Source: Podarcis filfolensis | Taxonomy: Eukaryota | NCBI GenBank assembly: GCA_964270895.1 | Contig: OZ185450.1 | Strand: one strand, 5' to 3' | Length of the DNA: 64,000 nt | The notes under the pieces: model-generated | The model's input: the letters and a program-made list of their open reading frames with translations, nothing else | Told to the model about the DNA's origin: nothing | Database searches by the model: none | Made by a program: the position numbers and the translations under genes | Shown here: positions 11,945-58,040 of the stretch, piece after piece | Layout of the letters: the number at the start of each line of letters is the position of its first letter | Position numbering within the stretch: position 1 is the first letter of the stretch

Positions 11945-13030
11945 AATGGGGGAGAAATTCAATTCAGTTCACATTTGAAGTTTGCATATTGTATATTTTA
12001 TCATTGTAAACTGCTTTAGGTCCTAGATAGCAAAAACTGGTAGACAGATATACAGGCAGTGACCATTTTGTGTGTGTCCAATACCCTACTTCCAACTCAT
12101 GGGTCCTTTTGGACCAGGAAGAGGGCAGAATGGGGGCAGGGCATAACGGCTTATGCACACTCTGCCGACTTGTGTGAGGGCCAGGAATGGACCCCTATGC
12201 AAAATGGTTGCCACATCTATATGAATCTACCTAATCTGTCCATTGCAAAATCATACATGAACTGAAACACGGCCATCATGCAAAATTTACCCTCTGAATT
12301 TTGCAATAGAGTCTTCTAGCCATGAGCAGAAACATGCTTACAGTAAGGTAAATTGCAGACAGAAATCCATATATTTGTAAAAGTAACATGCAAAAATGCA
12401 TGGGAACTGATTTGCAAAAAATGTGTGTATTACACAAAACTGCATAGGAAAAATGACTATTAGGTGAAATTCACACAAAGAGTGTGTCGGGGACTGGGCA
12501 GAGGAGGAATGGTGGAGACTGCCTCCCCAACCTGACCCTTCCAGGGATGAGGAAGAGGAAGACAGTATAGATTTACAACAGGGGGTTGGGGGAGCTCACA
12601 GCTCAGAGGCAGATGAGGGGAAATTTGGGAAATCATGGAAGAACCAGAACAGCTGGTTGACACATTGTCGTTAGAAAGCATTCCAGACCCACCATCTCCC
12701 AGAACCCTGTGGGCCTTAAAAGTAGGAGAGCAAAGAGCTCAAAGACAGAGGGCACATAGCAGCACCTGTAGATGAGGTGATGATGATGACGAATGAAGAA
12801 GTGGGAGAGACGGGGGAGGGGGGAGATTCACTCGGGACAATGCCATTATCCAAAAGGCTGGGTTCTATAGCCTCTCTGTGTAAAGTTTGAAATAAAAAGG
12901 GACTGTAAGAAACTTTCCCTTGTCTTACACTTTCCTGGGCAACCAGCCGGGAGCTGCTGACAGCATCCTGACGGAAGGGAAAGCTGAAAAGCTGAGATAA
13001 ACCAAAATTGACAGATTTGTCAATAGTTAC
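11945..13030 (+). mobile_element. Degenerate AT-rich non-autonomous element (TAGGGATG-terminus family), interrupted by the solo LTR
   Basis: GGGAGAAATTCAATTCAGTTCACATTT start and AAACCAAAATTGACAGATTTGTC end are shared with the copies at 14268, 33411 and 39777. Confidence 0.55.
12485..12972 (+). mobile_element. Solo LTR (probably Gypsy/Ty3-like), copy A
   Basis: Starts TGTCGGGG, has AATAAA near 12890 and ends ..CTGACA/CTGACG. Colinear similarity with the TSD-flanked solo LTR at 57450-57962. No clean TSD. Confidence 0.75.
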
Positions 13031-14267
13031 AACCAACTAAGTTTGCACTGGTGCACACACCACTGGCAAACCATCTGAAAGAAAAGAGTTAAGGGCTACA
13101 GGAAACCATCAAGCTTGGGTAATGAATTTGAGGAAATGGGTGCATCACTGGTTCACCTCTCCCCTGCCCCTCCTCTTCCTTTTTTCTGCCAATAATTCCT
13201 TTCCTTTCCCTTCCCCTCCTTCCCTGTCCTCTGGTCAAAGAAAGATGTGTATCACATCCCGCTGGGAGGAGACTGTAGACAAAGATCTGTCAATTTCTAA
13301 GGCTGTTTTCTAAAAGCTTTCTTCTCCCTTTTTTCCTTGCTTTGTTTTCCACCTGCCTGTACCAAATCTTTAAAAAAGAAAATGCTGCTATTAATAATAC
13401 ATGGCTTGGTTTGTTCGCTTTCAGTTTTCCCCATGATCCAAATACAGGTTGGTATTCAAGTGAGTGAGGGGGAATTGTTTATCCCAAACTTTGCTTCTTA
13501 CAGGTTGTTTGGTACTTTGCTCCCCTTTTGAACATCTTGCCCCCTCCTGTCGCTGATGATGCTTGCTTGGACTCATCCATGCCACTTGGCTTTTGATTGT
13601 AGCAACTCATCTTGGGTATTTTAGCCAGCAGCTGTTAACCTACTATGTTGCCAGGCACAATTTCTATACACACAAACCTTTGCAGATGCAACCCCAGAGC
13701 CTATTTATATTATTATTGTTGTTCAGCAAATGGTTCTAGGTTACACATTGTGCACTTAATCTGTATGACATTTCTTTCTTTCTTTTTTCCCCAGAAATTG
13801 AAGTGTTTTCACAGCAAAATGGACCAACTTCTTGCAAATGGACAATTGTTTGAAAACTGGAATGAAGGCACTGACTTTTAGTCAGTGAAGTGGGGCTTTT
13901 TTTTTTTTTTTTAGGTATGCAAGCTTTGTTTTGTTTTTACCATAATATTGAAAGCAACTCACAACAATCAGAAAACACAACACTTTCAATAAAACCTTAT
14001 ACCTTAACGTTCAAAACTAGGACAAAAATAGATGCAAAAGATGCACAGATGAATATCCACTCCCTTGCCTCAAAACCTGCCTGGCTTTTGCAAACATTAT
14101 CATTGACTGTACACAAAACTTTGAGGACTTTCACCAGTATTCAGAGATAATGCTCCCTCTGAATCCAGAAATATAGTAACTATAACATATAGTTGGGGAG
14201 GGGTGTAAAACCCTTACCTTAACTTGCAAGAGTAGGGTAACCAGCAAAAGAGGGGAACCTGTTTCAC

Positions 14268-22961: not shown

Positions 22962-25448
22962 TCTCTCCTTGTAGCACATTGCAGTATCTCTATCCACTGT
23001 GCATTATCTCCACAAATGACTGGCTCTTTCCAGTCAGAGATGGGTGTCTTGAGCTGGAGGAACAGGGCGGAAAGAATAAAAAATAAAATAAAACTTTAGG
23101 TGGATGGTTTTAATTAATTCCATATCCATTGTTCCAGGGAAGCTCTAACGAGGTGCAAAATACCTTGTTATTGTCAAGGCTCCTGAAGTTAACAAAACCG
23201 TTCCTGAGGATTCCCTTTGAAGTTGAAGCACTATAGCCTGCTACAGGGCACACCTGAGTACAAATAAACCCACCCAGGCAAGAGGAGCAGGTGCTTCAAA
23301 CACAGAAGCATTAGGGGAGAGCATTTGACAAAAGAGTGGGGGAGGGCAGGCAAGGGAAGAAGTGCATGGTGGGTAATTGGGGTGCTTGTTGTGTGATGTA
23401 CGCAGGCAGCTTATTTTTTTTCTCTCTCTCCTTCCCTGTCGTTCTACTTCCCCTTCACCTGCAAAAGACGGTAATGAAGCTGTCTATGAAATGGTACAGG
23501 CCTGGAAGGAAAACAGCACATTTCAGGTGCAGCAGCCCAGATGGCCAAAAGGAAGTTGGGCCTAAAAGAGTCCCTGCTTTAGGAGTAATTTATGTCCTAG
23601 AAAAACTGTGTCTTTATTTATGTATTAAAAAACAAACAAACACACCACATTTATGAACTGCTTAATATTTTACAAATCTCCAGTTGGTGCTCACTATTAA
23701 ACCAACTTTAAAGCAGAAAAGCAACATGAAACAGTGGTATGAAAGCATACTGAAACAGGAATTTCATAGAATTGCAGACTGGGAAGGGACCCCAAGGGTC
23801 ATCTAGTCCAAACCCTTGAAATACAGAAATCTGGGGAATTCAAACACATAAAACAGGGTCTAATTTTTTGGGATGAGGAAAACCTGGTGAAAAGGCAAAG
23901 TTTTTAAAAGACACCCAACTGAACTGGTGGTTTCTGCTCCGTGTATGGCAGGAGGAAGGGCAATCTACAGCACAGGGGAAATGGCAGAAGATGCCCTTAC
24001 CCCATACATGCCCCCTCAACCACTTCAATCAGTGGACCTGGCACTGTTATAGGTGCCACATAATAGCCGTTTCATATTGGTAATAACTTGACCTCTTAGT
24101 GTGGCAGCCCCTACACTTTGGAACTCCCTGCCTCTTGATATCAGGCAGGCTCCTTCCTTTTACTCTTTCTGGTGCTTGCTAAAAACATGCCAGTTTAGAC
24201 AAGCCTAGCTAGATGTTTAGAAAATTTATGTGCATTTTAATCTGTTTTTTTAGTTTATTGCTATTGAAAATGTTCAAGCGTCTTACATTATTTTTATTGT
24301 TAATTCTTCTTACTGATAAGTTTATTGTTTTTATCATTTGTGTGAACCAACACTCTAACCACGGCACCACAATGTGGGTACACCTCTTCACTGGAAGAAG
24401 GCACCCCAAAGAGGTGATACTTAGAGGTACACAGTGGGGGACATTCATTCCGTTGTGCCTCTCTGAACGGGAAGCAAATGAATGATCCCAGAGAACCAGC
24501 CAAGGTTACACATCCAACCGTCTTTTATGCAAGCTGGTTGGAGGGCGGGAAACCCAGAACAGTAACTCATGCAGAGACGTGATAGGCAGAGTCCCCTGAG
24601 GGGAAGATGGTGATTCTGCAAGGTTTCTAAACCAGAAGTGATGGAATACTCTAATTATATCTAACACAGGGACAAGCTGAATTGCCTGTCCACAGTGCCA
24701 GCTAATTGGAAAGAGCAAGGGGAAAGCAATCCATCATGCAGGGAGGCAGCAGGAACCTTCCCTCTGGGGGTGAGCACACGGGGCTCACGAGACCCTTTAA
24801 TCTTCACTTCTCACAGCGCATTAGCAGGGGGCCCACAGTTTGGGATTGACACAGGTGCTTCCAGGATAAGGGGCTCTCTTCTTTATTCTAGAGCTGGGAA
24901 AGCACCGGGGAAATTCAGACTTGTCCACGTCCTCTCCCGACTCCACCTTTTCCTTGAGCACTGCTGCTCTCCCGCCTGCCCGCTCTCCTGATCCCTGTGA
25001 CAGAATGGGGACACCATCCCAGTAATGTCAGCCGTTTGTTTGGAGTGTGGGGTGCAGCAAGCAGGCATGAATGGGGGACAGAAGGAGGGGAGTAAAAAAT
25101 AAAAAAAAAATATGCAGGCAGTTCTAATTACATCTAGGAGCTGAGTTAAGCAAGGCAAGAGTTTTCTTTAAATGGGGTGGGGGCCCTAGGAGAGGGTTCT
25201 TAGTTGCATAACACAACCCCTTGCTCCGTATGCAGGCAAGCAAGCTGTTCTGGAGGGTCAATTACAGCATACAAATGCAAGGGGGAAATTAGGGTGGTAT
25301 GCTAACTCTCTCCCCCCCCCCCCGTAATGGGCAGCTAAGCAGGCGGCAGAACAGAAAGACAGAGAAACATCAGTAATGACATATGCAAGGGATCCATCTC
25401 CTTTTTGTTCCTTGTCTTCTTGAATTCAGAGGAGATTTCTAGTTTATA

Positions 25449-25797
25449 AAGGTAAAGGGACCCCTGACCATTAGGTCTAGTCGTGGCTGACTCTGGGGTT
25501 GCGGCGCTCATCTCGCTTTATTGGCTGAGGGAGCAGGCGTACAGCTTCCGGGTCATGTGGCCAGCATGACTAAGCTGCTTCTGGCAAACCAGAGCAGCGC
25601 ATGGAAACACCGTTTACCTTCCTGCTGGAGCGGTACCTATTGATCTGCTTGCACTTTGATGTGCTTTCAAACTGCTAGGTTGGCAGGAGCAGGGACCGAG
25701 CAACGGGAGCTCACCCCGTTGCGGGGATTCGAACCACCAACCTCCTGATCGGCAAGTCCTAGCCTCTGTGGTTTAACCCACAGCGCCACCCGTGTCC
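25449..25797 (-). mobile_element. Sauria SINE, full length
   Basis: 14-bp TSD ATTTCTAGTTTATA at 25435-25448 and 25798-25811. Confidence 0.95.
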
Positions 25798-28608
25798 ATT
25801 TCTAGTTTATACAGCAGGTCCAATTCTCCATCCGTCACCCCCCTTTCAAGACAGCAAAGCCACCCAACAGACAGCAAATATGCCTGCATGATTAGATATC
25901 TGTTTGTCCCTTCAGAACAACACCCCCTTACATTTCTGACCATGCGGGTGGGAGGGTGGTTGGTAACACAGAATTCCCTGCAAGCAGTAAACTAGCAGAG
26001 CAGTCTACAGGCTGGCAGGGAGCTTTGCTTATTTATTTATTTTCCAAATTGGGGAGGATACAACAAAATGCACACACACACCACTTGCAATCTGGGACAG
26101 TCCACTCAGGACTTCACCAGCTCATTCTGCTGCATGAGTACGCCAGGAGAAAAAAAGCATTTTACCCTGTACAGAAGTGGATCAAAACAAACTGATATAG
26201 GCTAAAAAATTTACATGTGTCCTTCTTTGGCTGGTGTTCTTAGTATTCTCAGGGATGCTGGAAGATCATCTATCTCCTTCACTTGATGAAGTCACTATAC
26301 CGCTGGAGCTGCTGTTACTAACCAGGGCTTGAAAAATCCCATGCAGCAGGTTGCCTGGGAGCGTACAGGCACAATTCCCCCACTCCTGCACTGCCATGGC
26401 AATCTGCTGCCTAAAAACAAAAACAAAGACCATTTCCCCCAGAGTTTACCAATATTGTTCAGGAAACATATCGGCAAATGGTACTTCCAGGCAGCTCAAT
26501 GGCAGTGTCCATTAACAAGCTGCTTTTATAACATGAATAGACAGCCGGCTTATTATATTTCTCCTTAACCTTTCCACGAAGCCATGCAGCGGTGGGGTAA
26601 GGGAAGGTCGATTTTACTGGTGGCTACCGACATCTGCCTGAGCCATGTTTTGCCCAGTGATAAACATGCACCCAGCTGTGTGTACAATGCCTGCTCAAGG
26701 GATGAAGAAAGGAGTCTTTGCTTTGTGGGAGCTGACGGCGGAAAAGGAGGGGGGGCGAGGCAGCAGAGAGGTGGAAGAGGGAGATGGATTAAGGAGATAT
26801 TGGCTATTTCATTATCCAAACGCTTCACTTAAGAAGCAAAACAACCCAGAGATTCATTAAGAGAAACACTCAGCCGTCCAGGCCCTCCAGGAGGTCTGCT
26901 GCTCGCTAATAAGTCATGGCGGAGCTGGGCTGCTGCCACCTAAGAGCGCAAGAGGACCCTTAATAATCACTCTTCATTTGACTAATGACAACCCGTTGGC
27001 TAGCAAGGAGCAAATTGCAAGCACCAAGGAGGGACCTTGAGGCTGCTGCTGCCTGCACTGGATTCAGCAGAATAAATCTACCCATCCATCTGCCAACCTG
27101 CCTGCTCTTCCTTGTGTGAGGAAGATCCCAAGGAGCCCCTTTGGCTGCAAAAGGCTGCAAGACACAAAACAACTCTCAAGGTTCTTCCGATTAATGGGGC
27201 TCTTCTTCCTCCACCCTCATGTCCCACCCTCACCCTAAGACACAGCCTTGATCCCAGACTGGAGCATGCTCCTTAGAGTCTACAATGCACAATTAGCCAA
27301 TATGAATATTGTCTTCCAATTAAAATCCTTTCCACCAAGAGCTTTTTTTAAAAAACAACCCCACCCATCACTTCTTTTTCCTATATCCTTCTGGCTTCGC
27401 AACTCAGCATGAGAAGGGAATTAGCTTGGTGTGACTGCATAGCTGCCACTGTGAAGAGGAAGAACTTTGCAAAAGGAAGACCTCTTCCAAGTGGGGGAGG
27501 AATATGTGGCCACCATGGGGAGATGGAAAAGTCAAATGCCAGAGCTGGTCCTACTATTAGGCAGAGTGAGGAAGCTGTCTCAGGTGGCAGCTGCTGAAGG
27601 GAAGGGAATGCTGGCAATTGTCATTAGCCCATTGACCTCTGGTTTGGTTTGGTTTGGCAGCTCCATGTGGATGAGGATGCAGAGTGAGGAGATGAAGCAG
27701 GGTTGAAGGCTGATACCCCAGGATGGAGGATGGAGGTTCTCTCCTTTTCACCCCAAGCATCAGGGAGGGTGAAGCTGGTCTCTTGGCTCTCTCCACTGCT
27801 CCTCCTGCAAAGTGCAGAGCGTCATTGTGGAGGAGGGGTGACTTTGACCAGCTAAGGGAGGTGACAGCAATCTTGGCACCAAGAACCAGGCACCACCTTC
27901 ATCGATGGGATCAGATGCAACTGCTCAGATGAAGCGTGTTTGCCTGTGTGGCATTCCTGTAAAGCAGGTGAGCTTGCCACACCTCATCTCCCAAAAGCTG
28001 GGCAGCAAGTGCATGACAACTGTTGGGACATATTTGTTGCTTCTGTTTATTTCTGAATCTCTTCATTTGCTCTTATACTTTGGAATCTTTACTCTTAGAA
28101 CCTGTGCTTGCTGCTGAACCTAGGCCACTACTACTCTGGATATAGATCTCTTTCTTACTCACAAGTAAGAGCCTCCGTCGCCATGTTTTGGATGGGACAG
28201 GACAGCAAGGTGTTGGAAGAGAATGCTGTGTTTGTCACATGCGGTCTCCCTTGCATACCCTAAGCTAGCCAGAAGTGTGGAAGAGGATGCTGTTCTATCA
28301 TCAGAGTTGAAATTAGATTCATCCGCCAGTCCGGCCAGATTATCTACATGGGACGGGGGGAAAGTCACCTCGTCCTTTGCCTCAGATGGCAACGTATCTC
28401 AGGCCAGCCCTACCAAAGGTCCACCTAGTCCAGCATCCTCTTCTCACAGCAACCAAACAATAGGAAGTGGTCTAGAAACAGGATGGCCAACTTGGCTGTG
28501 AAAAAGGGAAGATCTGAGGGTACGGAAGTGTTGCTGTTCATAGATTATCATCTCCAAAGACTATAACGGAAGGTAATTGCATCTTAGTTGTGCTGAAGGA
28601 GTATCTAT

Positions 28609-34760: not shown

Positions 34761-36064
34761 TCAAAGATCCCTGCAGTGTGGTGGTAATTTTCCCCAAGGC
34801 GCATTTCAACCTCCTTTGTGGTACAATAGTTTTGGAATAAATTAAGATTAGCTGGGGGGTGGAGTCAGTTTGATTAGCAATCTCCCCCCCCCCAAAAAAA
34901 AAACAATGAAAAAACCACGTATGAGAGATTAGCTGAGTTAAGGAACAGTCAGGAACAAGGGTTTCCCCATTTTCCTATGTTTTTCTGCCATGAATATAAC
35001 ACAAGGTATGGAAGCAATTGCTGTGGTTGGCCTGGGGTTATATTCATATATATATATTCCTTAAAACATTTACCAGAAGCCAAGATGCCTTTGAAAAAAT
35101 CTTTAGGCTTATATAAATATGTATTTAGGATCAACTAAATACATACCAGGGATTTCTACTATCTGAAAGATGTCTCGCTTCAGTGACTGCAGAGGTAAAA
35201 AAAGGAGACGGCTGTTATACATATTTCTGATGCATTATGCTTTCCGACTCATATTCTTCTAAGTGCTGAGCATGTGCTATGTGCTTTTACAGTGCAAGCG
35301 AAGGATGGCTTCAAGTGGCAGCCCGCAGACAGATTCACTTTCCCAGATCAAATTTATTTGTCTTCTCAATGGTCCTACCAAATTTTAATCAGGGTGTGGG
35401 AAAATATTTGCCCAGAGAGGTGCACTAGCAATGACTTTTTTAAAAAAAATGTTTCAATATGTTAGAAATGGGCATTATAATTTTATTTTTATAAATGTTT
35501 TGCGGCTGCTGAGTTCTGCTGATGATTTTGGCAAATGAATTGTAGCTTACGATTTTAATGCTGCTACAATATTCAGCTTTTTATCGGTAGTGTGTTGAAT
35601 TACTAGGAGCTGTGTATTGCATTGATGTTTGCCATTGTTTGTTCTGTGAATGTCAGTTTTGACTATTTGTTCATTTCGGAAATGTACTTGATTGATATTG
35701 AATGCTGCTGCATTTATAGCAGTTGCGTTCAGTAGTTGCGAAACAAAACAAGTACAAAAACAAATCTGACTCCACTTGATATTCCACACTTCTCCCTTCC
35801 CTCACCCATTTTGGGTGTAGTAAGTGTTAAACATTTAAATGTACAGATTTTTTAATGGAAACACTACTCATGTGCTTAGTCGTGTGAGATGGTGGCGACT
35901 TGACTTCAGAGTCCACCCACTCGTGAAGGAATCCATTTGTAAGGTTGGATATACTGTTGGCTACAGGATTACTGCCAGCAGAACAGAGCAGCCCTCTAAC
36001 ATTCAGAAGCTGGCCATTCCCAGAGTACAATAATACAAACTGTATAATAAATTGTATAATAATA

Positions 36065-42284: not shown

Positions 42285-43419
42285 CCAGATAAAAGGAGGA
42301 AAGCACTCTATTCTAGAAAAAGGTCACCCACACACGGACCCAGGCTGTTCACACAAAAAAGCACTCATCAAGCCCTTTTGCTTTACTCTTGCCCTCCAAC
42401 CCCTCACAACTCAACAGTGGTCCCTTCCACCACGTTCTGTATTCAGCCCTGGTTTCTCAGCTTGGAATTCCCCATCTCCAAATTTGAGCAAGACCTTACC
42501 TTTGCTGCCAGACAGGTGCTTCCATGTGACTGTTGGTTCTGGTCTCCCAAAGGCCAAGCACAAAAGGGTGACACTGCTGCCTTCGTTGACGGTGATGTCT
42601 GAGGTGATGTTTATAATCTGTGGAGGAACTGCAAGAAGAAAGGTGGGAAGGAATGAATACCTGTTGTAAACGAATTCTGATGCTACTTATGGGCAAGCCC
42701 TTCCAATCCAAGGCTGAATTTGGGGAAGTTAGACTATCTTGCCCAAATCCTGTTCTGCCAAGGGCAGCTGCTTTTTTTGGGGTGGGGGGATTCAGGGGCA
42801 ACAAGCACATTTATGGGTGAAGTCGACAGTCACAGCAAGAATTAGATGTAAAGCTATGAGATCATATTAATGCACAGCAAGAATAAAGCATAACACTACT
42901 AACGAATATCATTATTCGTTTGCAAATTTGATTTCTAAGAATTCATTCCTAGGCATGATAGCAGCAGGAACCTCTGGTAGCTGTAGTTGGTTGACACATT
43001 GCACCATCCTGGGACCTCTCTCTCTCCCCTGGGTCTCTTTATCTCCTCTGGGTTCCTCTCACAGTGCTTCCAGCTCTCATATTCAGAGTCTGTATCCTGC
43101 TGAGGAAGATAATTGGTGCATTACTCGTTCCCTTGTGAACCACACTTCAGAGGTCCCCAAGGACCTCCCCTAAGGGTCAGAGGGATGAGTTATGAGACTG
43201 CAGGTGCAGCTGTAGTCTTGTGACCCTGCCTGTCAAAGTCAAAGCATTTGACTTAACCAACTGGGGTCAAGAAGACAACCACTTGTCAGTCATAGGTCAG
43301 GAGCTTTCTCTTTTGCATTCCTGCAATAGTGCTGACCCTAGCAGAATATGATTAAAGCTTTCAGGACTCCAGCTTACCACTTTACAATATTATGCCAGAA
43401 TAGCAAATGCACAGTACAG

Positions 43420-43760: not shown

Positions 43761-45183
43761 AACAAACTCAAAGTGTCTTATATCCAACATTCCCTCTGTA
43801 TTTAAGATTCCAACCCTCCCTCTGTCTATTTGATGTTGGCAATGAACACCAGAGGCCTGAAAATGTGCTGCAAAGAATCAGGAACACATGGATGTGTGAT
43901 ATTTTGGGGGCTTCTGCAATCCTCAGTCCATAGAACTGTGAACATTGCTTCTATCCACTCCAGGCTTACAGCTGGGGCTGAGCATCTGGGGGGCACAGAT
44001 TATCCACCCCCAATCTAGACTCTATACAGATTTAGTGATACAGTTCTACAAAATAGCACACAGCTGTCAATGTGAATGTCTTCTAAAAGTTGAGTTCCTT
44101 TTCACCCTTTCCTTTTACAGTATCTTCTTCTCTCCCACCCCAACCATACACCTTGCCTTTTGAGGGAAGGAATTAAGAGCATTTTAAAATATCTTGAAAG
44201 ATTCGGGGGAGGGAACGAAGGAAGGGGGAGAGAGACTTTAGCTTTCAATCTGTTAGTCTGCTCCTGGCAATATAGCGTGCAGCATATTTAAAGGACAGCT
44301 GATGTCTTGTGGAAAGCTGAAAAACAACCTATGGAGAGAAATGATTCAGCCCTTTTGAATCTACATTTCCCCTATATTTCTGTTCACTGGTTCTTTATTA
44401 CAAAGGACACTGGCGCGAAAACATGTTCTTCAAGGATTCATCTGCGTCTCCGCTGTTTATTCCCCACCTGAATCATAATCTCTTGTTTGTGTCTTCACAG
44501 TTGGTTGCTATGGAAGTTATTATGTCCTTGGTATCTCACATTCACATCATGACGGGCGTAGAAAGGAATAAGAATCTTGTTGAAGGGGAAGGTGGGTTCC
44601 CCCTCCGGGCTGAAACCAAAGTCCATGGATAGAGCCGCATCGAGAACTCCGCACGACTGAACAAGTTTGAGGTGTATATTTAAATGAAGGAGATAATCCA
44701 GGATTACAAGTTCAGACATGGAAGATAAAGTCCAGCATCACCACAGGCAAGGTGAAGAGCAAGCCAGCTCTGATAGGGGACACAGACAAAAGCACTCGAT
44801 AGCAGCCACCACCTGGCGCGGAAGATTAGGGAGGGGATCTCAGGTGTGACCCTTTGTTAAGAGATGCAAGTTATTGGATTTCACCTTCGTACAGGAGTAT
44901 CACAACTCCGCAGAGCAAGGGTAGCCAACATGCTGCCCTCCAGATGCCACAGGACTGTAATTCCCATCATCTTGTGCTGGTTGAGGCCACAACATCTGGA
45001 GGGCACCACGTTAGGTACCCCGAGGGATAGGGGAGAAATTCACTCAGTTCACAGTGAAACAACCTAATTCACATGTCCTAAGCCAAGATGCAAACCAAAG
45101 GACAGCTCTCCTTCAAAATCCACAGCCTGCCAAATTTTGTGATGCACTTCCCCTAGCAAATACGGCATGCCCCCCAATGCATA

Positions 45184-45415
45184 CAGTGGTACCTCTGGTT
45201 ACGAACGCTTCTGGTTACAAACGCTTTGGGTTATGAACTCTGCTAACCCAGACATAGCTGCTCCTGGTTGCAAACTTTTGCCCCAGGAAATCGCATGCCA
45301 GAGGCGCGCAAGCATGGGAGACCCCATTAGCGAAAGCGCGCCTCAGGATAAGAACGGTTGCAGCTTAAGAACGGACCTCCGGAACGAATTAAGTTTGTAA
45401 CCAGAGGTACCACTC
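45184..45415. mobile_element. Tc1/mariner (Tigger-like) MITE
   Basis: TA TSD; TIRs CAGTGGTACCTCTGGTTAC / GTAACCAGAGGTACCACTC. Same family as 36408 and 60710. Confidence 0.9.
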
Positions 45416-46061
45416 TACATTAGTGAAAATAGTATCTGTTTTCTAAAAAGAGAGAGAAAAGTAAACAACCTCTCAATCCTCATGCAGACCTAATGGTCTG
45501 GTGCATGACTCAACAACTTTTTGCACTTAATTCTACTGCCTCTACTGAGGAGGGAGGAGAATAGACTCAGTGCACAATTCCAAATGAAGCCAGGATGCTA
45601 ATTGGCTGTACACTGCATGCAAAGGTGGCTGTGTTGGTCCATAAAAACAAGAAAATATCAAAGTTCACAGTTAAGCAATGCATTTCTTGGAATCAGCCCA
45701 AATAACACCAAAGTATGGTCAGCTTTCAAATCCTCCAGACCTCTTTGCTAGGGGAGATGTTACAGAAAACAGTTGGCAAGAGGGACAAGGAAATATATTA
45801 AACAAACACAGATGTGGGCACACAAACTACGCTTGTGTTGTAGCCATGAGGTCTTTATGTAGAGTCAGGGCAACTGACTTTTGGGTTTGGTGGATGTGCG
45901 TCAGTAAACGAGGGGAATTAAGACTAAGAGAGCTGAGTGGGGGGTGCTTGTGTAATCTCACTGTATACAAGTTGTACAAGTGACAATAAAGTATTTCAAT
46001 GTAGACAAAGTTCCAAGAAGGAGTTGTAGGCTGAGTTAGTCCCTCCCTGGTGCTATGTAAG

Positions 46062-49492: not shown

Positions 49493-50042
49493 CAGCGGCG
49501 TAGCATGGGTTGTCAGCACCCAGGGCAAGGCAAGTAATTTGCGCCCCCTAACCCCTAACCTGCCACCGCTGCCAGCTTCTTCTTGCTGCTGCCTGGGCTG
49601 GGGTATTTACGGTAAGGTAGCCACGGCGGCGGCGGCGGGTCCGTGTCAGGTGATCTGAGGCGAGTTGCCGCTGGTGCTGCTGCCCAAACGACGCCGCTTG
49701 CCCGGAGGAGGAGGAGGAGGGCAGAGAGGCGAGGAAAATGCAACATGGCCCAGCAGCTGCAGCAGCAGCGGCGGCAGGGGGGGCGGCGGCTGTGAGGAGG
49801 GGCTGCCTGGCATGCCCTCTGCGGTCCTGACGCGCGGGGACCGCGGCGAGCGCTGAGAGCCACTGCCTGCCGGACGCCTTCAGCCCGGACGCGCGCACAG
49901 CTCATCGGTTCCGCGAGACATGGGGCTCTGCTACAGCCTGCGCTCGAGGCTCTTCGGCGACTCAGGAGGCGGCGAGCGCGCCCCCCCAGATGTTGCGCCC
50001 GGTGCGGCCGGCCCCCCCTGCACCCCCCACGCTACGCCACTG
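49493..50042. mobile_element. Non-autonomous hAT (Tip100-like) element carrying captured host DNA (Pack-hAT)
   Basis: TIRs CAGCGGCGTAGCATGGG / CCCACGCTACGCCACTG (15 of 17 match). Perfect 8-bp TSD GTCTTCCC at 49485-49492 and 50043-50050. Subterminal TTGCGCCC near both ends. CpG-dense interior within CpG-poor flanks. Confidence 0.88.
49920..49985 (+). pseudogene. GNAL: Captured 5' fragment of G-protein alpha-olf long isoform (XLGolf) exon 1
   Basis: MGLCYSLRSRLFG versus human GNAL long-isoform N-terminus MGLCYSLRPLLFG (11 of 13, from recall). Strong Kozak context GAGACATGG. The rest of exon 1 (..[21 protein letters not shown]) is absent; the frame runs into the transposon end. Confidence 0.75.
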
Positions 50043-50234
50043 GTCTTCCCTGCTGCTTACCCTATTTATTGTCTTTTGAGCACTAGGGGAAGAGAACTTT
50101 ATACTTCATTAAGTTTTTTACGTGCAGTTTTAATCTTCCTGACTGTTCTTTGCTGCTTTTATGTTAGCTTATCGTATTTACATGTTATTTTATTCATTGT
50201 GTGTGTGTGGGGGGGTGGATTATAAACTGCCCTG

Positions 50235-57160: not shown

Positions 57161-58040
57161 ACACAACACTCACCCTGAGAAGACCATGACAGTCTTCCTG
57201 CCATGACAGTCAATTACTGTTGGAACAAACAGGTCTTCTTCACCTGCTGGCAACAGGAAAGCAGAGAAGGGGCCTGCTGAACATCCCATAGGAGGGAGTT
57301 CCACAATCTGGGAAAATCCACCAATAAGGTCCTCTCTTGACTGTAAGTTGAGGGCAAGAGAGAGGATTCCCCAAAAGTTCTCAAAGTCTGAGCAGACTCA
57401 TCTAGGGAGATAATGCTCCTCCTGATAGCCTGATCCCAAGCTCTGTAGGTGTAAGGGACCGTGCTGAGGAGGGCTGGAGTGAGGAGGAATGGGAGCCTTC
57501 CCCTCCCCCTGCCCCTGATCAGGATCCTGAATCTTCCCAGGAGCAGGAGGATAGTATAGATTTGGAACAGTGGTTTGCAGACGGACATAGTTCAGAAGGC
57601 AGAAGTTGGAAAATACTGGATGGGGAACAGTAGGAGAAGAAACACTGGGAGGGAAGGAGTTAACAGATTCACTGTCTCTGGAAAGCATTCATCCGCTCTC
57701 CCCAAGGTCAAGGAGGGCTGAGTGGCAGAACAGAAAGCACAGAGGGTATAAGGTTAGGTTACAAGACGTAGGAGTGACGTGGGTGACTACAGATGTAAGG
57801 GGGTGGAATTCTTCATTGGGAGCACTGCCATTCCTAGCAGATGGGTTCTTTGTTCTCTTGCTGCGAGTATTAAAGTTTCTAACTGGTAAGAAGACTCCTT
57901 TTCCTTTGTTCTGCTAATCTATTGCCAAGGGGGGGAGGAAGTTGATTTCTTGAAGACTGACAGTAGGTCATAACCAACACTTTGAATTGTGCCCAGAAAC
58001 AAACCAGCAGCCAGTGCAACTGCTGTAAGGAGGAGTGCCC
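56925..58040 (-). mobile_element. L2 LINE 3' fragment split by a solo LTR
   Basis: Translations LQQLHWLLVCFWAQFKVLVMTY (57965-58035) and FPRLWNSLLWDVQQAPSLLSCCQQVKKTCLF (57215-57320) are consecutive L2 ORF2 motifs. Confidence 0.85.
57450..57962 (+). mobile_element. Solo LTR (probably Gypsy/Ty3-like), copy B
   Basis: TG...CA termini (TGTAAG / CTGACA); perfect 5-bp TSD GTAGG at 57445-57449 and 57963-57967; TATAAG near 57747 and ATTAAA near 57869. Confidence 0.92.

Follow-up and report, generated by a model that had tools for sequence, protein, structure and literature searches.

The window, by which we mean the whole 64-kb stretch of Podarcis filfolensis DNA analysed here, contains two solo long terminal repeats (LTRs) on the plus strand, copy A (12485–12973, 489 bp) and copy B (57450–57962, 513 bp). 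Copy B represents a diverged family, has TGT..ACA ends and is flanked by a perfect 5-bp target-site duplication (GTAGG at 57445–57449 and 57963–57967). Copy A belongs to a high-copy family; it starts with TGT, deviates from ACA at its final base and has an imperfect duplication, GAGTG at 12480–12484 on the left and GAAGG at 12974–12978 on the right (3/5 alike). The TG...CA termini and short target-site duplication expected of a solo LTR were thus found in full for B and with a 3/5 duplication for A, and the A family in addition behaved as a dispersed repeat, its copies being sharply bounded and lying in unrelated surroundings. A loose scan of the window returned five more stretches that run from TGT to ACA between exact 5-bp repeats (25037–25609, 35273–35985, 45396–46007, 27220–27981 and 44077–45053), which may be due to chance. 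The window also holds a host gene, recognized by an immunoglobulin-domain exon on the minus strand at 42414–42686 (Pfam Ig_3, E 6.8e-9), and a GC-rich island at 49500–50050, beyond which (from about 50050) the sequence is AT-rich. An ATG at 49921 within this island opens a frame reading MGLCYSLRSRLFG, which may resemble the start of an extra-long G-protein alpha isoform. SINE-like repeats in the window have a look that suggests a lizard host.

Four public sequencing runs (X1, X15, X17 and X24) were aligned to copy A and its flanks. A total of 5427 contigs of run X1 aligned to the region, as expected of a high-copy family, with 115 loose ends at 12485, 206 at approximately 12972–12973 and an agreement between flanks of 0.34. 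Summed depth in this run was about 1.4e5 over copy A and about 21 on the unique flank, and since depth does not equal copy number we read this only as very many copies. The insertion itself is common to the organism of run X1, one contig spanning the left flank and the start of the LTR with six differences in 179 bases. The flanks of copy A were found joined to each other in other copies of an older repeat, with X1 contigs bridging from 12401 to 12985, from 12446 to 12986 and from 12452 to 12999. This older repeat is AT-rich, surrounds copy A (12361–12464 and 12985–13036) and gives the flank a depth above single copy in X1.

Near the LTR's 3′ end, a non-coding patch common to both copies (12842–12896 in A, plus strand) carries TTCTAT, a TATA-like word, at 12863 and AATAAA at 12891, a putative promoter and poly(A) signal whose boundaries are approximate. 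These elements would place the coding part of the LTR, described below, in U3. Among 107 raw RNA reads aligned at copy A there were no RNA ends and no splice joints; these reads came from other copies (none was 99% alike to A) and from both strands, and are uninformative on translation. An Rfam scan gave 0 matches.

Both LTRs open a reading frame from their second base, and our translations agreed with those of the first-pass annotation that had drawn attention to it. In copy A, the first coding block (12486–12611) is acidic and Pro-rich, with 13 D/E in 42 aa, and is separated by a frame break (12612–12625) from a second block (12626–12796) that contains SLESI and SPR, has a basic, Gln-rich end and meets in-frame stops at 12773 and 12794. 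In copy B, the first block (57451–57630) has 19 D/E in 60 aa and is followed by a stop at 57631 and a break before 57654; the second block (57654–57770) contains SLESI and SPRSRR and has an undefined 3′ end, the frame staying open to 57914. Further in-frame stops were present at 12881 and 12893 in A and at 57915 and 57951 in B, and the stops of the two copies rule out a gag gene that starts inside the LTR and leaves through its 3′ end.

To determine the degree of constraint on this frame, we used three ungapped blocks of the A/B alignment, amounting to 40 codons and 43 nucleotide differences, which were picked where the copies align and whose borders were partly guided by the protein alignment. 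Twenty-five of the 43 differences were synonymous, as compared with 21% expected (binomial p=1.6e-7). In the base-2 frame pS was 0.98, which is saturated, pN was 0.19 and dN 0.22, giving a pN/pS of 0.20 over the 40 codons, so that per site silent changes between A and B were about five times as frequent as amino-acid changes; the other two sense frames gave pN/pS values of 1.02 and 2.39 and contained three stops each. The differences fell at codon positions 1, 2 and 3 in the numbers 15, 6 and 22, the second position varying least, and when neutral evolution was simulated under the transition bias of the data, taking the best of the three frames, the 16 silent codons observed were reached with a probability of 2e-5. 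Decay of CpG could explain only one of the 16 silent codons and was ruled out as the source of the excess. Recounting two segments singled out by the first-pass annotation gave exactly its figures: 12 of 16 residues are identical between 12653–12703 and 57660–57707, nine of the 12 through different codons, and the three nucleotide differences within EDSIDL (12558–12575 versus 57547–57564) are all silent. The purifying selection that it had proposed was likewise borne out for these two copies, in the frame from LTR base 2 alone. Codon-level constraint from LTR base 2 is present in A and B, as a single contrast between two copies.

The other members of the A family were consistent with a frame longer than the one left in copy A. 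Other copies diverge from A at 12620 in four of the four runs (31 contigs in X1, five in X15, three in X17 and 10 reads in X24), next to a dip in depth at 12621–12646, suggesting that the frame break is likely private to copy A and that the other copies, as judged by these loose ends, probably hold both blocks in-frame. The breaks in A and B share the same phase, which is a coincidence, possibly a meaningful one. The stop at 12773 is absent from most of the aligned depth, leaving 12794 as the next stop; X1 depth, which was highest over the coding blocks, dropped from 142,533 (12725–12750) to 6,217 (12777–12802), near this stop. The frame of the family would thus appear to end at 12794, with about 100 codons in all.

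At two positions where A differs from B, 12585 and 12595, 94% and 90% of the X1 depth carries the residue of B, and it follows that the two families are closer in protein than copies A and B show and that the differences peculiar to A are largely later decay. When A was compared with the aligned copies, six of 20 classified differences were silent (the 20 coming from 40 of 183 rows), which fits the neutral decay of solo LTRs and reflects mostly the decay of A itself rather than a test of selection within the family.

Block 1 contained no in-frame ATG in A or in B, nor did the host flanks; an ATG at 12635 in block 2 of A is absent from B. Since block 1 lacks an ATG in both copies, translation of the constrained frame must have come in from a point upstream of the LTR, as only a 3′ LTR allows. 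This bears out one part of the earlier proposal, that an open reading frame ran from the internal region of the parent element into its 3′ LTR. The other part, an accessory gene of the nef or sag kind as first choice, gave way to the phase of pol, the Sushi-like ends and the acidic tails of fish relatives described below, and the outcome that the proposal had named as its own refutation, a frame that is just the end of pol, appears the likeliest on the indirect evidence of relatives. Among the 24 of 565 loose-end rows listed, none upstream of 12485 resembled a polypurine tract, and a search of 125 frames (four peptide pieces and 121 of the 220 frames of at least 72 aa, mostly the longer ones) gave no Gypsy internal fragment in the window. 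Neither an internal region of the A/B parent nor a relative of its LTR was found in viral contigs or metagenome contigs.

The peptide consists of an acidic-aromatic, Pro-rich N-terminal part and a basic C-terminal part. Its SP-R may be a CDK/MAPK-like motif, as the first-pass annotation proposed. A single-sequence structure model of block 1 of B was almost all coil, with a pTM of 0.22, which is weak evidence for disorder. Conservation is concentrated in short words. One of them, of six residues (D, S/T, I/L, D/S, L, E/Q), was noticed post hoc to be present two times in each peptide, in unlike codons, as EDSIDL and as D-S/T-LSLES (12558–12575 and 12659–12679 in A; 57547–57564 and 57666–57686 in B); it may be a repeated binding motif. 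Homologue searches with peptide pieces gave 22 and 17 candidates, none of them significant, and the pieces had 0 matches among 1.84 billion representatives. The peptide of B had no usable match in Atlas, four peptide pieces matched no Pfam family, and five peptide or DNA words occurred in no paper of the open-licence literature.

To place the parent element, we compared the LTR ends with published motifs. Sushi LTRs have the end motifs TGTYANR and CNTNACA (PMC3601003, Table 3), from which A and B each differ by one mismatch at each end. The 5′ end of B fits the rGmr1 motif TGTNANR given in the same source without mismatch, better than it fits Sushi, while both 3′ ends show two mismatches to rGmr1 as compared with one to Sushi. 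The class III endogenous retroviruses (ERVs) covered there, with LTRs of 504 bp on average, require only TGT..ACA, a loose motif that A and B also fit. Chromoviruses, Gmr1 and other Metaviridae clades are among the elements reported from reptile genomes (PMC3670739), and Gypsy elements are described as abundant in squamates (PMC11011659, PMC8872380). Judged from these ends and the relatives below, the parent of A and B was likely a Sushi-type chromodomain Gypsy retrotransposon.

We then examined how pol meets the LTR in chromodomain Gypsy elements. A short chromodomain motif retrieved 121 loci from metagenome contigs (17 of 64 parts scanned) and gave no match in viral contigs. Under a strict scoring rule, 49 of 64 scored matches had the first T of the LTR at codon position 3 of the chromodomain frame, and under a relaxed rule applied by family the same phase, in which the pol frame reads from LTR base 2, was found in 14 of 20 scored families, one being a 1:1 tie. 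The rule was loosened after the results of the strict one were known, and 35 of the 55 clusters had no scorable polypurine tract followed by TGT, many of which were short contigs or host genes. As the families share descent, the nominal p of 0.0009 for 14/20 is too favourable; they had also been selected by a chromodomain motif. The TGT start was backed by a second LTR copy for three loci (L018, L023 and L045), and RT, RNase H, integrase and Chromo domains lay in a single frame in two (L001 and L003). The constrained frame of A and B, starting at LTR base 2, thus equals the pol phase of 14 of 20 relatives, and pol of the parent may have met its LTR in the same way. A match of phase is expected one time in three at random.

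The same loci indicated how far pol may extend. In the fetched chromoviruses the LTR started mostly 128–197 nt past the chromodomain motif. Pol continued into the LTR in six of the 20 scored families and stopped just before it in eight of the 14 in-phase families; phase alone is therefore no proof of read-through. Read-through of 16–94 codons was found in L003, L039, L041 and the L007 family. In this last family (13 loci, e.g. L007, L022, L034 and L072), 10 of 13 copies had a pol that entered the LTR for 19–94 codons. In two other loci, L062 and L069, the first 330 nt or so from the chromodomain lacked a polypurine tract followed by TGT, and in L069 the terminal repeat starts about 10 nt past the pol stop.

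A chromodomain profile search provided a second set of relatives, the best 120 of 1885 matches, 119 of which had the motif; those with a name were all from fish, and there was no reptile pol among these 120. Among the 119 integrases listed, 38 stop right after the domain, 28 have a G-x-V junction, 39 carry acidic Pro/Ser tails and 14 show none of these, and 22 of the 28 G-x-V read-throughs listed are only 2–9 residues long. In L104, the sole acidic fish tail with a readable position, the tail precedes the polypurine tract. The lizard peptide and these tails were not alike in sequence (best E 0.41). Of separate note, 32 of the 119 listed proteins (P0001–P0120) end in S-x-E-F/Y/L/I or SP-x-F/Y, mostly behind an acidic tail, and no description of this conserved terminal motif of fish Gypsy integrases was found in open-licence papers.

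Three known systems offer points of comparison. Nef and the sag of MMTV are U3-overlapping retroviral accessory genes, separate genes carried on spliced RNAs. Like them, the A/B frame would begin upstream of the LTR and finish inside U3; unlike them, it matches no Pfam family, and no env, splice site or start codon of its own was seen in the solo LTRs and their flanks. The view that LTRs are non-coding apart from such genes, taken in the first-pass annotation, proved too narrow, as pol of chromoviruses is described as running into the 3′ LTR (PMC3059260, PMC3605345). In the CRM group A plant centromeric chromoviruses, a CR motif or putative targeting domain is encoded in the 3′ LTR (PMC3059260), and the same extension into the LTR is given for Beetle7, Bingo1-4 and Bingo7 (PMC3605345). 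The A/B frame is like that of CRM group A in being a conserved coding region inside the LTR, past the polypurine tract, and here too it would be the C-terminus of integrase; it differs in that the host is an animal and the peptide acidic and of low complexity. With the Sushi-type (V-clade) elements of fish (L001, L003, L039 and L100; P0001–P0120), A and B share end motifs within one mismatch, a similar LTR length, what would be the same phase of LTR base 2 relative to pol and, with 39 of the 119 listed proteins, an acidic tail. Read-through in these fish elements, in contrast, is mostly of 2–9 residues, and the lizard peptide lacks the S-x-E-F/Y-like end of the 32 listed fish proteins and any similarity to them in sequence.

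The reading that we favour, with a probability of about 0.65, is that the first ~300 bases of the A and B LTRs evolved under coding constraint and encode, in U3, a disordered C-terminal tail of integrase, the end of pol, in an arrangement like that of the plant CR motif. In the full-length parent, pol would continue behind the chromodomain, cross the polypurine tract and enter U3 of the 3′ LTR, ending near 12794, and integrase would thereby gain a tail of ~100 residues. Reverse transcription would copy U3 into both LTRs, and every solo LTR would then be a copy of the tail lacking its start, followed by neutral decay. The tail, if disordered, may bind host chromatin or import factors through its short acidic-aromatic motifs and basic end, and might help in nuclear entry or target choice; a role in chromatin tethering or nuclear import is conceivable on this basis.

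A separate accessory reading frame seems unlikely to us; its start codon would be found past pol but before the polypurine tract, or else on a spliced exon, and its product would be a small protein, acidic but basic at its end, such as a transactivator. It would account for strong constraint over ~100 codons, longer than most fish read-throughs, for the division of the peptide into acidic-aromatic and basic parts and for the stop of pol just before the LTR in 8/14 in-phase families, and nef and sag demonstrate that retroviruses have such genes; yet the distance of mostly 128–197 nt between chromodomain motif and LTR in relatives leaves little space for a second gene, and the phase of A and B is that of pol. 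In addition, an LTR 'accessory gene' of a tuatara foamy ERV was judged an artefact, in a case not put to a selection test (PMC6669660).

Quite improbable, in our estimate, is that the frame is the tail of another upstream gene, namely the RNase H end of a Gmr1-type pol, the env of a class III ERV or a non-autonomous gag. The 5′ end of B, which is rGmr1 TGTNANR without mismatch, the undemanding TGT..ACA and average length of 504 bp of class III LTRs (PMC3601003), and the several Metaviridae clades reported from reptiles (PMC3670739) would be in line with it, while each of the 3′ ends is closer to Sushi (one mismatch) than to rGmr1 (two), and the 125 frames searched gave no internal sequence of any class in the window. 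We give very little credence to the possibility that no protein is involved and that U3 is conserved as DNA or RNA motifs, the silent excess being a by-product of alignment choice. This would agree with the small basis of two copies and 40 chosen codons, with the break of both copies between the blocks in the same phase, and with the 6/20 silent differences between A and other copies (from 40 of 183 rows), but it has to contend with second codon positions varying least (6 vs 15 and 22; p 2e-5 with frame choice allowed), with CpG decay accounting for 1/16 silent codons, and with the 94% and 90% of X1 depth giving the residue of B at 12585 and 12595, which makes the differences of A largely later decay.

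If the frame is the tail of integrase, as we prefer, the arrangement is known already in plant chromoviruses and visible in fish relatives, while a frame so long and so constrained, in a reptile family of high copy number, appears to be undescribed. No description of a long conserved LTR-coding case in reptiles was found in open-licence papers and preprints; Repbase and Dfam may already annotate the A/B frame as the end of pol, and the intact element may be present in published squamate repeat libraries. A bolder reading, which we regard as possible but doubtful, is that a very abundant reptile retroelement has in U3 an undescribed, motif-bearing module of ~100 residues. This would be the animal equivalent of the plant CR motif, tethering integrase to host chromatin in place of the chromodomain, or else a nef/sag-like accessory protein in a non-retroviral element.

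Were the integrase-tail reading true, annotators would be warned against taking the coding signal of a solo LTR as proof of a new gene. Thousands of 'non-coding' solo LTRs in these genomes would then be fossil integrase tails, and they would provide a large natural alignment for the short motifs by which vertebrate Gypsy integrases engage host chromatin.
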